Sequence record: OQ938541.1
Direction: 5' to 3' (one strand)
DNA length: 64,000 nt
DNA from: Escherichia phage vB_EcoP_PE006
The position numbers and the translations under genes are program-made. Positions 57,840 through 63,878 of this stretch are shown here, in pieces. Every line of letters begins with the position of its first letter. Position 1 is the stretch's first letter. The notes beneath the pieces are model-generated. The model had not been told where the DNA came from. It worked only from the letters and a program-made list of their open reading frames with translations, and made no database searches.

Positions 57840-58043
57840 TTAGTAGAACGAACGAATTTCATCCCACACTTGTTCCTGTTCTTTCCTATAAAAAGAAAGT
57901 TGGGTCTTGAACATCTCCACTGATGATTCAAAGTTTTTAGATTGTGCAGCTTCAACGAAACGTTCATGTCGGTTGATTTTGCACCGTAGCATTAAATACT
58001 TGGCTTCAAGTCTCCGAAGAGCCTGTCTTTTCTCAAGATTCAC
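57840..58043 (-). CDS. hypothetical protein (67 aa)
   Basis: ORF only. Confidence 0.35.
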   Translation of the reverse strand: MNLEKRQALRRLEAKYLMLRCKINRHERFVEAAQSKNFESSVEMFKTQLSFYRKEQEQVWDEIRSFY

Positions 58044-58452
58044 TTTTCAGATACTCTGACCAGTCGCCAGATTCAACCAGAACATCTTGTTCTTCGTCGA
58101 TATGGTAGATATAGCATTCAACAACTTCACCTGAATCCAGTTTAACGTTGATCAGGGTGCGATTGTAGAAGCTATCCTCAGGGCTGTGTTTGTTGTAACC
58201 TTCCAGTCGGTCATATGGACCTTCCAGACCTGCTTTGTCAGTAGCAAACACTTCTACACGAACAGGCTTATTGTTATTGCTGTGTGCAAGAGAGATGCTT
58301 GGGAAGTAGGAACCACCATAACGGAACAGATCAAAGTTGTCTTCAGTCCAACCTTCACCAATTGACTTAGCACCAGCTCGGTCATTAACTAGATAGTTAG
58401 CTTGACCACGACGAAGAGAACCATAAGTTGCTACGTAAATTACTTCTGACAT
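58033..58452 (-). CDS. gamma-glutamyl cyclotransferase-like (AIG2/GGCT family) protein
   Basis: N-terminal VATYGSLRRGQANY matches the YGSL...G signature of AIG2/GGCT-fold enzymes. Confidence 0.55.
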   Translation of the reverse strand: MSEVIYVATYGSLRRGQANYLVNDRAGAKSIGEGWTEDNFDLFRYGGSYFPSISLAHSNNNKPVRVEVFATDKAGLEGPYDRLEGYNKHSPEDSFYNRTLINVKLDSGEVVECYIYHIDEEQDVLVESGDWSEYLKSES

Positions 58453-58453
58453 T

Positions 58454-58663
58454 TTAAATACCTTTCCAGTCTTTCATGATGTTTTCAATATAAGCACACT
58501 GCTGATCAGTGGCTCCTGTTACAAACACTTCTAACCCCAACTGCTCGCAGAATGGATTAAGAATCAATATTCTGGTTTGTCCGTATGAGTGATGCTCTCG
58601 GTAGATAACACACCCGGCATCCCATACAGAGTCAATGGCTTTACTTAATCTTTCATGTTTCAT
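58454..58663 (-). CDS. hypothetical protein (69 aa)
   Basis: ORF only; a hairpin follows at 58680-58705. Confidence 0.35.
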   Translation of the reverse strand: MKHERLSKAIDSVWDAGCVIYREHHSYGQTRILILNPFCEQLGLEVFVTGATDQQCAYIENIMKDWKGI

Positions 58664-58716
58664 AAAACCTCCAGTTTATCCGAACTAGCCTCCTCTTTCG
58701 AAGAGGCTAAAGCAGA

Positions 58717-60577: not shown

Positions 60578-60791
60578 GAGGTTCTACCTTAATGCCTTTG
60601 ATTTTTACATAATCAGCAAGTACATTATTGATCACAGTTGGGAATGGAACCTCAACCTGTGTCTCAAGTACTTGACCAATACCAGCTTGCATCCACTTCT
60701 GGATTGCACGAAGGTTATCACATCCTGTGCTCGTCATCGGGATACGTCGAGTAGTTACAACGTTATCCAGCATCATCTTACGAATTTCCAT
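60558..60791 (-). CDS. hypothetical protein (77 aa)
   Basis: Small ORF inside the ligase cluster. Confidence 0.35.
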   Translation of the reverse strand: MEIRKMMLDNVVTTRRIPMTSTGCDNLRAIQKWMQAGIGQVLETQVEVPFPTVINNVLADYVKIKGIKVEPHVKSGS

Positions 60792-60793
60792 AC

Positions 60794-62824
60794 TTAACCT
60801 CTATTCAATGAACATTTAGGAGAATTACAATAAACTTGATTCATAGAACCAAGCGTACAACTTTCAGCATCGCGCCACGGAATCTGCTTAAAACACTCTG
60901 AGCAGTAGCCGAGGGTTGACCACATGGCTTTGGTGAAGTCAGTGCTTCGGTTTCCGTCGAAGCTGACAACAGTTTTGCGGAGAGCTGTTCGTGATTCAGG
61001 AAACACACCTGCTTTCTCAGCAGGTTCCTCCTTTTTTGGCTTAGTTGAGATTGCAAAAACACTGTTGCTACGTTTCTCAACATAAGCATCAACAACATCC
61101 TCCAGAGTGATGCCTGTCTGTTTCGCTGAGGAAGGTAATACAGTCATACGACCAATCATATCTTCAGTTACACGTAAAGCAAATTCAGGACGACGGGCGT
61201 TTGTTGTATCTGTTGCTTTAATCCAGATATAACCATCTTTGATCGTAGCATTAGACACTTTCTTCTTTACATCTACAGCGCAGACTTTACAGATATCTTC
61301 ACCACGAAGACGGCTGAGTTCTTCATCAAACTCGTTTTCTGTTTTAACTTCACCACAGATTTCACAAACACCGATAGGAGTTTCCTCCTCTTCTTCATCC
61401 TTTGGTTTAGTCAAACCTTCCAGACATTCAGGGTGCCAGTAGCATTGATATGCGAAGACTGCTTTAGGTGCATCCTTCCAATCAATGTGTTTGTCACAAC
61501 CACCACAATCACCATGAGAGTGCGCTTCCCAGAATTTACGAGTGATAGTAACGCCATTCTTGTTGACGAAACTATCATTCATATCAAAAGGGATATCATC
61601 ATCAAAGTCAGCAGTAGTAGACTCAGGCTCCTTTTTCTCCAGAGATGGGTCAACAAAACGACCTGCTGTGATTACTAAACGAACCATAGCATTAACTTCG
61701 GAGATGCAGGATACTGTCCCACGGTAAACAATTTTAGGGTCTTTCAGGGCATCCTGATAAGCCTTAATGTCTACGTTATGAACATCACCCTCGATATACT
61801 CTTGAGACTTCTCATCGTAGATATAACCGATCATCTTACCACGAGAAGGAACAGCACCAGCTGTTGCATAAGGAACAAACTCATGTGGTGTGATTTCTAC
61901 AGTCATGTCGCGGCGAATGTCAATGTTTCGATCGCTTGCGATTTTGTTTTGACTTACCACTGCGTTTCTTCGACGAACGTCTGCCGCTGTCACTCCCGGC
62001 TTCGTGTCGTAAGGATTGCTTGTACTGCTTTTTGAGGAACTTTGATAGTTGCTTTGGCTGTAGTTGTTCGAGTAGTAATTGCCCCAACGATTGATTACCG
62101 TAAAAACCGGAAGCTCGTGGGCGACCTCTTCAACCAGAGTCATGCTGTTGTTTGACATATCAAAGATATACTCTGTACCAACTTTACATTCAAAGTGCTC
62201 ATCAATTCGGTTCTTGTGAGACTTAGAACGCTTCAGAATCCACATCAACATATCTTCTTCAGAAGCACCAAACCAATCTCTGTTACAACGTGCGAGATGG
62301 AAAGGACGCTCTTCGTTACGGATGATATGAAGGCGGTTATCAGAAGCATCATGCCAGATTAAGGTGAAAGCACCATCCAGCTTTTGAATAGTCTCTGCTG
62401 CACCAATAGTATTAATAGAGTGGCAGATGTTCTCACTATCTACCTCGAAGTTTTTACTGTCAGGTAACAGATCTTGGTCCATCAAGGTTCCGTTATGAAC
62501 CAGAGTGATGTTACCATGTTGGAAAGGATGGGCGTTCTTGGCGTTAACTGCACCTTTCGTTGCATGACGGCTGTGACCAACAATCCATGAAGGTGCTACA
62601 GTGTAAGCTGTTTCACCAGTGGTGTGCTTCTTGTACTCATCTTGAAGGATGAATGCGAAAGAAGGAAGTGCCTCTTTATAAGTGAAGACTTCCTTAGTGC
62701 TCTTACGCTGACCAAAGATACCAGAGGAATGTTGCCCTCGGAATACCCCAGCATAAAAGAGTTGGTTAAATACGTCTAAATCGGTGCTTGACAGATTACC
62801 GCCAGCTAATACGATGCCACAAAT
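60794..62824 (-). CDS. class-II glutamine amidotransferase (Ntn-hydrolase) domain protein with Cys-rich C-terminal zinc-ribbon-like segments; proposed non-canonical ATT start
   Basis: The frame is open 113 codons upstream of the track's TTG start and encodes (I)CGIVLAGG...GHSRHATKG...NAHPF...LVHNGTL, a GAT-II signature with N-terminal Cys. An in-frame TAG lies two codons before the Cys; the only codon before Cys is ATT, with AGGTGG 8 nt upstream. Confidence 0.55.
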   Translation of the reverse strand: MCGIVLAGGNLSSTDLDVFNQLFYAGVFRGQHSSGIFGQRKSTKEVFTYKEALPSFAFILQDEYKKHTTGETAYTVAPSWIVGHSRHATKGAVNAKNAHPFQHGNITLVHNGTLMDQDLLPDSKNFEVDSENICHSINTIGAAETIQKLDGAFTLIWHDASDNRLHIIRNEERPFHLARCNRDWFGASEEDMLMWILKRSKSHKNRIDEHFECKVGTEYIFDMSNNSMTLVEEVAHELPVFTVINRWGNYYSNNYSQSNYQSSSKSSTSNPYDTKPGVTAADVRRRNAVVSQNKIASDRNIDIRRDMTVEITPHEFVPYATAGAVPSRGKMIGYIYDEKSQEYIEGDVHNVDIKAYQDALKDPKIVYRGTVSCISEVNAMVRLVITAGRFVDPSLEKKEPESTTADFDDDIPFDMNDSFVNKNGVTITRKFWEAHSHGDCGGCDKHIDWKDAPKAVFAYQCYWHPECLEGLTKPKDEEEEETPIGVCEICGEVKTENEFDEELSRLRGEDICKVCAVDVKKKVSNATIKDGYIWIKATDTTNARRPEFALRVTEDMIGRMTVLPSSAKQTGITLEDVVDAYVEKRSNSVFAISTKPKKEEPAEKAGVFPESRTALRKTVVSFDGNRSTDFTKAMWSTLGYCSECFKQIPWRDAESCTLGSMNQVYCNSPKCSLNRG

Positions 62825-62903
62825 TTTCTAATCCACCTGAAGGGTAAACCCTTTCATCTAATTAACCTTTAAATTGTGCCCCTTTATCAGAGGCACCCAT
62901 TGA

Positions 62904-63878
62904 TTACAGCGCTTGCTCTAACTGATTTTCCAGATGATCTGGAATGTACCCTGTGATATTGCTATCGCTGTGACCTGACTCACGCAGTAAGTCAAAGATA
63001 GCACGGATACGTTGTTCTGGAGCGTGTCTTACTTGAGACAGGTCAGTTGTACGAAGCATAACCAGAATCTCTTGGTATAAGTTGTTAGCGTTCCCTCGGA
63101 TATACCCAAGGAATCCGTAGAAGTCTGACATATAACGTAAGTCAACAAGAACATCTCCGTTGGAGTTGGTTCGACGTAAACGAATACGACCAGACTGCTC
63201 TACTCCATGAGAACGACAATACAAAACATCACGGGCCATACAATACCCTGAATGCAAATCCGATTCGTCCAGATTGTAATCCAGAGGAAGGTAAGTAAGC
63301 ATTGGGGCAAATCGTACAGTATTTAAATGCTCAATAAACTGATCATTGCTCATCTCTGCGTTATCTAATGCAAGCTTCTTCAACATCAAGAAGCGGTTAA
63401 CCAGATTGAGAAGTTGACCACGTTTCCACTTAGGCTCACTGATACGGAACTCAATCGAACCATATTGGGCAAGTGGCAGAAGGTTCAGAGATGTATACTT
63501 ATCCCATGAACGAACCAGACGGTTGAAGAACTCTTCATCGTCGTAGTTAAATGCGTCAGAGGCATTCATTACCTGTGCTTGTACCACTGCGAAAGCAGGG
63601 CAGAAGTTGCTACGGTAACGATGGTAGCCTGAACACTTGAACAACATCTTTTCATAGAAGGTCCAAGCGAGAATGGTTTTCTTGAGGATATTACTATCAG
63701 CATCCCTCATATCCATATGAACGTGAGTAGAGCAACGCCAAGTCCCCTCGGCGTGCGATTCAGCTACTGCTTCACTCAGGTTGTTGATAGCGTCTAACAA
63801 CTCCTGTCCGTTGTAAGGTCGTGAACATACCATTTCACAACCATTACGCAGGGAACCATCCTCTGTACAATCCCACAT
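62904..63878 (-). CDS. hypothetical protein (324 aa), part of the ATP-grasp/amidotransferase cluster; possible amide ligase by context only
   Basis: Conserved-looking ORF (EGTWRCSTHVHMD...); family not identified from sequence. Confidence 0.4.
   Translation of the reverse strand: MWDCTEDGSLRNGCEMVCSRPYNGQELLDAINNLSEAVAESHAEGTWRCSTHVHMDMRDADSNILKKTILAWTFYEKMLFKCSGYHRYRSNFCPAFAVVQAQVMNASDAFNYDDEEFFNRLVRSWDKYTSLNLLPLAQYGSIEFRISEPKWKRGQLLNLVNRFLMLKKLALDNAEMSNDQFIEHLNTVRFAPMLTYLPLDYNLDESDLHSGYCMARDVLYCRSHGVEQSGRIRLRRTNSNGDVLVDLRYMSDFYGFLGYIRGNANNLYQEILVMLRTTDLSQVRHAPEQRIRAIFDLLRESGHSDSNITGYIPDHLENQLEQAL

Follow-up and report, generated by a model that had tools for sequence, protein, structure and literature searches.

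The downstream half of the phiEco32-type amidoligase cassette in Escherichia phage vB_EcoP_PE006

Escherichia phage vB_EcoP_PE006 (sequence record OQ938541.1) carries, at the end of the 64,000-nucleotide stretch analysed here (referred to as the window), the 3' (downstream) half of the phiEco32-type amidoligase cassette. The complete cassette is predicted to encode three ATP-dependent carboxylate-amine ligases (a RimK-like ATP-grasp enzyme, Amidoligase_2 and COOH-NH2_lig type 2), together with a class-II amidotransferase-like protein of the N-terminal nucleophile (Ntn) type, a gamma-glutamyl(amine) cyclotransferase (GGACT) and partners without a catalytic domain. On balance, we favour the reading that these proteins form an early-expressed, soluble multi-enzyme pathway, in which the three ligases act as an assembly line on an intracellular acceptor. 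The catalytic residues of the three ligases, the Ntn enzyme and GGACT are intact, and the genes of the cassette occur together far more often than expected by chance.

The cassette has already been described and named, and it is not new. According to the papers that cite it, Iyer et al. 2009 predicted that the amidoligase and the amidotransferase of phiEco32 modify the cell wall and prevent superinfection. Duhaime et al. 2017 refer to a seven-gene 'peptidoglycan modification cassette' and, citing Hardies et al. 2013, describe it as conserved in RIO-1, phiEco32, 7-11, PA11, tf, MR299-2, LUZ24, PaP3 and CW02; a paper from 2025 still treats it as a putative module. In GenBank and RefSeq, relatives are annotated as glutamine amidotransferase, ATP-grasp enzyme, amidoligase and gamma-glutamyl cyclotransferase, and one Pfam family of the cassette (PF14395) is even named after phiEco32. 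A preliminary description of the window had proposed an undescribed system, which these sources contradict. It had also said that no experimentally established function in a phage is known; this agrees with our searches of the full-text literature, in which the primary descriptions were known through citing papers and no experimental function of the cassette was found.

Composition and conservation of the cassette

Across its entire 6 kb, the region shares 95-97% identity with E. coli kuraviruses such as XT32, NJ01 and SU10. It is matched by 97 phage records, 65 of them with at least 80% query coverage, and the phage is placed in the Gordonclarkvirinae, genus Kuravirus (phiEco32 group). The window holds the genes of Amidoligase_2, the glutamine amidotransferase-like protein (GAT), DUF7195, the ATP-grasp ligase and GGACT, all on the minus strand; the remaining part was read from the 95% identical SU10. 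There, the operon extends upstream, outside our window, by four further cassette genes, namely X3 (205 aa), COOH-NH2_lig (Pfam: PF14395, 'Phage phiEco32-like COOH.NH2 ligase-type 2'), X2 and X1, so that the cluster does not end at position 63878 as previously delimited. The order in SU10 is X1-X2-COOH-NH2_lig-X3-Amidoligase_2-GAT-DUF7195-ATP-grasp-GGACT-primase/helicase. Salmonella phage 7-11 and Pseudomonas phage LUZ24 share this order, and Salinivibrio phage CW02 does so in part. The core features are as follows.

62904-64000, minus strand: Amidoligase_2 (PF12224), cut by the window end
60794-62824, minus strand: class-II amidotransferase-like gene, 676 codons (GATase_6, E-value 1.1e-14)
60558-60791, minus strand: DUF7195 small protein, 77 aa (PF23825, E-value 4.7e-17)
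59154-60350, minus strand: ATP-grasp protein, 398 aa, RimK-like by profile
59556-60350, minus strand: RimK-like ATP-grasp ligase domain, residues 1 to ~265
59154-59555, minus strand: acidic linker and C-terminal extension of the ATP-grasp protein, residues ~266-398
58033-58452, minus strand: GGACT/AIG2-like gamma-glutamyl(amine) cyclotransferase, 139 aa (PF06094)
Outside the window (L001:12011-12628; SU10 gp087): X3, ~200 aa, SH3/Tudor-like barrels
Outside the window (L001:13437-15618; SU10 gp089 and gp090): X1 and X2, of the 'long' cassette form

Conservation was assessed in 85 loci, comprising 80 from IMG/VR (retrieved with the amidotransferase as the only bait, at identities down to ~28%), four from GenBank and the window itself, which were searched with iteratively built hidden Markov models (HMMs). 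Amidoligase_2 was found in 83 of the 85 loci, X3 in 81, COOH-NH2_lig and the ATP-grasp protein in 80 each, GGACT in 61 and the primase/helicase in 50. The cassette genes all lie on one strand, and the triplet COOH-NH2_lig-X3-Amidoligase_2 is invariant; the amidotransferase gene directly follows or precedes it, and then come ATP-grasp and GGACT. X3 is as universal as the enzymes, and its gene is always located between those of the two ligases of the triplet. A 'long' form of the cassette, marked by X1, X2 and DUF7195, is present in 15-17 loci. The suggestion in the preliminary description that neighbouring enzymes which make and break amide bonds belong to one system is thus borne out, both by the families confirmed below and by their co-occurrence.

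As regards expression, the SU10 paper places the cassette genes in the early region, and SU10 proteomics detected the ATP-grasp protein, the amidotransferase, GGACT and gp86 by mass spectrometry in a lysate concentrated with polyethylene glycol. Neither transmembrane segments nor hydrophobic stretches resembling signals are present in the cassette proteins, which indicates that they are soluble. When PADLOC models were run against nine cassette proteins, no match to known anti-phage defence systems was obtained.

Three of the enzyme families in the window are assigned above their Pfam cutoffs (GATase_6, GGACT and Amidoligase_2). The frame at 62904-63878, formerly listed as an unassigned 324-aa protein, is in fact Amidoligase_2 (PF12224, E-value 4.4e-8, 33.7 bits versus a cutoff of 22; PHROG 7469, E-value 9e-156). 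It stays open to base 63998 at the end of the window, and comparison with the SU10 orthologue of 367 aa places the start codon ~7 nt beyond base 64000, with ~3 N-terminal codons missing from the window. The ATG at 63878 is internal; a start there would remove the motif GVGIELELEG, which lies upstream of it and contains the invariant G-x-E-x-E, the first metal-binding motif. Invariant residues of the family are G29, E31, E33, S52, E58, H95, H97, R130, E186 and R188. Amidoligase_2 and COOH-NH2_lig both retain the E-x-E / H-x-H / E-x-R motifs, and for both a glutamine-synthetase-like fold is putative, on the basis of Pfam and the literature.

For the ATP-grasp protein, whose gene was correctly delimited from the start, a profile built from 29 phage homologues was compared with the Protein Data Bank (PDB). 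It matched RimK and alpha-L-glutamate ligases with E-values of 6e-14 to 2e-12 over ~215-240 positions, i.e. most of the ATP-grasp domain; D-Ala-D-Ala ligases are secondary matches. The top NCBIfam matches are MptN (cofactor alpha-L-glutamate ligase) and RimK-family models, and relatives of the protein exceed the Pfam RimK cutoff (33.5 versus 21 bits). Residues K85, R121, E157, R159, K173, D229 and N243 are invariant, and E241 is nearly so. A homologue is present in 312 GenBank phage records, and tblastn alignments to distant phages cover residues ~4-265. The acidic linker and the C-terminal module are confined to the Kuravirus clade (10 of 85 loci); residues 317-398 are matched by PHROG 20552, an 82-aa stand-alone family.

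The cyclotransferase gene likewise has exactly the extent and family that had been proposed for it (PF06094, E-value 1.9e-16, 61.1 bits versus a cutoff of 22.8; PHROG 2520, E-value 4e-43). It shows the motifs YGSL at residue 10 and LEGY, which holds the catalytic Glu, at residue 83. Long variants of the ATP-grasp protein, Amidoligase_2, X3 and GGACT yielded no informative additional Pfam domains.

The amidotransferase-like protein, its start codon and its leader

Pfam assigns the amidotransferase-like protein to GATase_6 with 55 bits (cutoff 27). An AlphaFold2 (AF2) model with a pLDDT (predicted local distance difference test) of 87 delimits the Ntn domain to residues 1-245, for which Foldseek retrieves the glutaminase domains of GlmS, PurF, AsnB and EgtC with E-values of 1e-12 to 1e-9. 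Homologues conserve C1, R28, R85, T88, N110-G111 and D128, which appear to be the counterparts of Cys1, Arg26, Arg73, Thr76, Asn98-Gly99 and Asp123 of GlmS. The domains of the protein and the leader of its gene are distributed as follows.

62087-62824, minus strand: Ntn (class-II) glutaminase domain, with the Cys1 nucleophile codon at 62821-62819
60794-62086, minus strand: C-terminal extension (AF2 domain boundaries)
61397-61573, minus strand: zinc-ribbon 1, residues 417-475 (C439/C442/C466)
61232-61375, minus strand: zinc-ribbon 2, residues 483-530 (C486/C489/C511/C514)
60797-60979, minus strand: zinc-ribbon 3, residues 615-675 (C640/C643/C665/C670)
62825-62903, minus strand: conserved leader of the amidotransferase gene (hairpin and 29-nt element)

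What is more delicate is the start of this protein. The frame offers no ATG, GTG or TTG ahead of the catalytic Cys; codon 62824-62822 is ATT, followed by TGT, and the first standard start in a program-made list of open reading frames (ORFs) is the TTG at 62485. Because a Shine-Dalgarno sequence (AGGTGGA) lies 7 nt upstream of the ATT, 90 out of 120 homologues begin with MCGI or MCGL, and the RefSeq coding sequence of SU10 uses the identical ATT, a start at the ATT directly before Cys1 is supported. The N-terminal Cys of the mature glutaminase, on which the preliminary assignment to the class-II amidotransferases had been made to depend, would thus be part of the real protein, and the extent of 60794-62824 given there is exact. 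Automatic gene callers and the original GenBank record of SU10 use the TTG at 62485, which removes the catalytic Cys1 together with 113 codons from the beginning of the glutaminase domain. The resulting 563-aa product forms a protein cluster of 211 member sequences and appears with 63.8 kDa in the SU10 proteome table.

The leader between Amidoligase_2 and the ATT contains a hairpin (62876-62896) after the Amidoligase_2 stop codon, and a 29-nt element (62829-62857), ATGAAAGGGTTTACCCTTCAGGTGGATTA. This element comprises a 9-codon upstream ORF (ATG at 62857, TAG at 62830-62828), whose TAG ends it 4 nt before the ATT, as well as a small hairpin (AAGGG-TTTA-CCCTT) and the Shine-Dalgarno sequence (62832-62838). 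It is 100% identical across kuraviruses with amidotransferases that are only 69% identical, and also in a contig with a 42% identical amidotransferase, where TAT replaces TAG and a TTG directly precedes the Cys. In locus L087, GGGCTTGCCC replaces GGGTTTACCC, which amounts to a compensatory change from T-A to C-G; since only kuravirus contigs in IMG/VR carry the element, evidence from covariation is limited to this one change. The fold of the leader has a z-score of -2.2. Its conservation suggests translational coupling or control of the weak amidotransferase start codon. Amber read-through of the TAG was considered as another way to reach the Cys and rejected: the window contains no tRNA gene, and the ATT (TTG in the relative) is the simpler solution.

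Downstream of the glutaminase domain, the AF2 model arranges the extension as a disordered linker, a beta domain (279-395), zinc-ribbons 1 and 2, a second beta domain (531-595) and zinc-ribbon 3. The three Cys-rich segments noticed at the outset are real: they form modules in the model, and the alignment shows every one of their cysteines to be invariant or almost invariant. A ribbon of the type C..C-n-C..C is present in 49 out of 87 GAT ORFs. Pfam finds no match in the extension.

Two observations concern promoters. In L010-L017 (the 7-11-like and other C3-type groups), a TTTAAATGTAAA-like motif is situated ~20-40 nt upstream of the amidotransferase start, between the hairpin and the Shine-Dalgarno sequence; its resemblance to the middle/late promoter consensus of SU10/phiEco32, TAATGTATA, hints at an internal phage-specific promoter in the cassette. 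Matches to sigma-70 promoters are not enriched in the region.

Small proteins and neighbouring genes

Besides DUF7195, four small ORFs are interspersed in the window's part of the cassette.

60353-60577, minus strand: 74-aa ORF (PHROG 13464; Kuravirus clade, 10 of 85 loci)
58899-59147, minus strand: 82-aa ORF between GGACT and ATP-grasp
58717-58902, minus strand: 61-aa ORF between GGACT and ATP-grasp
58454-58663, minus strand: 69-aa ORF between GGACT and ATP-grasp

The three ORFs within 58454-59147 match only PHROGs of unknown function, occur in 5-10 of the 85 loci, all of the Kuravirus / 7-11 clade, and are lineage-specific fillers, not core parts of the cassette. The 58717-58902 ORF has a hydrophobic C-terminal stretch (Kyte-Doolittle maximum over 19 residues of 1.93), and its product is the only one of the cassette region that might be membrane-associated.

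DUF7195 is the sole small ORF conserved beyond the Kuravirus clade (17 of 85 loci). It is encoded directly downstream of the amidotransferase gene, and LUZ24 gp20 (E-value 5e-19) and 7-11 gp101 occupy the same place. Its alignment shows R15, P18, D25, P49, P51, D60 and Y61 as invariant and a variable C-terminus, because of which the role of a tag or carrier of the Pup or LysW type was rejected for it. The same candidate role was rejected for the other small ORFs, given their presence in 5-10 of 85 loci. The idea of the preliminary description that the small ORFs between the enzymes could be substrates has accordingly lost ground, as most are restricted to the Kuravirus clade and the C-terminus of DUF7195 is not conserved.

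Among the proteins encoded outside the window, X3 returned nothing from Pfam (33 members) nor from a profile search of the PDB, and BFVD gave only its own family. X1 and X2, which are paralogous to one another, share an invariant Cys-x-Gly near residue 26; neither Pfam nor the PDB yielded a match for them, and they are unrelated to the Ntn domain.

Directly downstream of the cassette, the window (53575-57813) encodes a T7-type primase/helicase, a separate DNA polymerase exonuclease subunit, a 470-aa class-II CCA-adding-type nucleotidyltransferase and a dCTP deaminase.

Proposed pathway, its acceptor and related systems

According to the model that we favour, the three ligases would add amino-acid units successively to an intracellular acceptor. 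These units are probably of the glutamate type and linked via gamma- and alpha-carboxylates. The Ntn enzyme would bind glutamine or a gamma-glutamyl moiety, and either give ammonia to a ligase-activated carboxylate (amidation) or clip a gamma-glutamyl group. GGACT would take a gamma-glutamyl group off an amine as 5-oxoproline, so that the gamma-glutamyl group may serve as a removable handle. X3, with its SH3/Tudor-like barrels, and DUF7195, encoded beside the Ntn enzyme, would be non-catalytic partners.

Several observations weigh against this pathway. The 85 loci are related by descent, and their counts are not independent, though several virus families are spanned. GGACT is absent from 24 of the 85 loci, some of which are truncated contigs; in view of these absences, deprotection by GGACT may be dispensable. 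A direct hhalign comparison of Amidoligase_2 with COOH-NH2_lig reaches a probability of 1.4% and aligns only the R..H-x-H motif, and sequence searches of the PDB with either protein gave no solved-structure match. As a single sequence, the ATP-grasp protein stays under the Pfam cutoffs (Dala_Dala_lig_C, 17.4 versus 24 bits; RimK, 16.4 versus 21 bits). Finally, the zinc-ribbon modules of the amidotransferase are not universal and are detectable in 10-26 of the 85 loci.

The nature of the acceptor is the most challenging part of the interpretation. We lean, tentatively, towards a protein or other macromolecule that X3 and the zinc-ribbon domains would present, because X3 is adaptor-like and the amidotransferase carries zinc-ribbon and beta domains. 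A more specific version, to which we give less credence, is a macromolecule-tagging machine: X3, DUF7195 and the zinc ribbons would present a protein or nucleic acid, the ligases would build a removable, gamma-glutamyl-anchored tag early in infection, and the Ntn enzyme and GGACT would process or erase it. If true, it would represent a viral counterpart to pupylation or to glutamylation of the RimK / tubulin type.

A free small molecule as acceptor is improbable to much the same degree as the tagging machine. The product would be a gamma-glutamyl peptide or amide, e.g. a glutathione-like thiol or a gamma-glutamyl-polyamine, which aids replication or counters the host. As a matter of general knowledge, the set of folds equals that of the gamma-glutamyl cycle and of GshA/GshB/GGCT, EgtA/EgtC, PuuA/PuuD and BtrJ/BtrG; moreover, the structures matched by the Ntn domain include EgtC, and the top NCBIfam matches of the ATP-grasp protein include MptN and RimK-family models. 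However, a universal X3 with SH3/Tudor-like barrels is more typical of macromolecule recognition, as are the zinc-ribbon and beta extensions of the Ntn enzyme, and no transporter or precursor-supply gene is linked to the cassette in SU10, 7-11, LUZ24 or CW02.

Modification of peptidoglycan, the published prediction, credited in citing papers to Iyer et al. 2009 and Hardies et al. 2013, seems unlikely to us. It implies that the ligases build or alter the unusual stem-peptide linkages of murein on cytoplasmic precursors, that the Ntn enzyme and GGACT degrade or recycle them, and that the wall of the infected cell is changed and other phages are excluded. The stem peptide does include a gamma-glutamyl linkage, and its D-Ala-D-Ala bond is formed by an enzyme of the ATP-grasp type; D-Ala-D-Ala ligases are among the secondary matches noted above. 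The identified hosts are all Gram-negative and, to our knowledge, share one murein chemotype. On the other hand, the cassette proteins are soluble and devoid of envelope-targeting signals, the best ATP-grasp matches are RimK and alpha-L-glutamate ligases, not Ddl, and Pfam and NCBIfam indicate no likeness to Mur ligases or known murein enzymes. The phages are virulent, with the cassette fixed beside replication genes and early, and a short lytic cycle presumably leaves room for little new murein. No supporting experiment was found in the literature.

Still more doubtful is a nucleic acid or nucleotide as acceptor, with an amino-acid-derived group put on DNA, a nucleotide precursor or tRNA. In each of the four annotated phage genomes examined, the genes of the primase/helicase and of the polymerase exonuclease subunit lie immediately downstream of the cassette (with the primase/helicase in 50 of 85 loci), dCTP deaminase and the CCA-type nucleotidyltransferase are its neighbours in the window, and binding to nucleic acids is common for zinc ribbons and KOW/Tudor-like barrels. 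Yet this linkage may merely mirror the shared inherited replication module of these podophages, and Pfam detects in the cassette none of the enzymes typical of known phage clusters for DNA hypermodification (base-hydroxymethylase, DNA kinase, pyrophosphorylase, DpdA, glycosyltransferase).

That GlmS and RimK are merely adjacent as independent auxiliary metabolic genes, as product names in RefSeq and PHROG would have it, is scarcely tenable, given that they strictly co-occur, in a fixed order, with two more ligases and X3, and at the level of family membership it is already refuted by the profile scores: the amidotransferase reaches 35.8 bits with the GlmS model TIGR01135 (cutoff 418; residues 78-196 only) and has, by Pfam, no SIS domain, its C-terminus consisting of zinc ribbons and beta domains instead, while the ATP-grasp protein reaches 25.6 bits with the model of the RimK S6 glutamate ligase, NF007764 (cutoff 331). 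By the same scores, RefSeq over-annotates the two proteins as 'GlmS' and 'S6 glutaminyl transferase'.

The cassette occupies 4-10 kb, about one tenth of a 45-kb genome, and ranges over Gordonclarkvirinae, Grimontviridae, Bruynoghevirus, Zobellviridae and many marine metagenomic podophages. Its function is an existing, experimentally tractable problem and no discovery of this window; a solution, more than 15 years after the prediction, would probably bring to light phage-host biochemistry of a new kind. Some kuraviruses were isolated on E. coli K-12 hosts, which makes the cassette of the window a convenient entry point.

Among known systems, the phiEco32-type cassette (PF12224, PF14395) is the same thing: gene content and order match SU10, 7-11, LUZ24 and CW02, with no difference of substance except that the window holds the downstream half only. 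With RimK/CofF/MptN, the phage ligase shares the ATP-grasp fold and conserved Mg/ATP-binding residues; in contrast to them, it falls far below the equivalog cutoffs, carries an acidic linker and a C-terminal domain, and is always accompanied by two companion ligases. The amidotransferase resembles the N-terminal domains of GlmS/PurF/AsnB as well as EgtC and YafJ/1te5 in Cys1, in the residues that bind glutamine or gamma-glutamyl groups, and in fold; compared with GlmS/PurF/AsnB, it lacks the SIS, PRT and AsnB synthase domains and possesses novel beta domains and three zinc ribbons.

Pathways in which a gamma-glutamyl handle is added and then removed include the glutathione cycle (GshA/GshB/GGCT), ergothioneine synthesis (EgtA/EgtC) and butirosin synthesis (BtrJ/BtrG). 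They likewise combine a GCS/GS-type ligase, an ATP-grasp ligase, an Ntn hydrolase and a cyclotransferase of the GGCT fold, and EgtC is a structural match; they differ in that there is no orthology and that the cassette is phage-encoded, with two glutamine-synthetase-type ligases and an adaptor. Pupylation (PafA/Dop and Pup) and the LysW/LysX system also pair a ligase of glutamine-synthetase fold or a RimK-like ATP-grasp ligase with small proteins, but no small ORF of the cassette has the conserved C-terminal Gln/Glu or acidic tail of such carriers.

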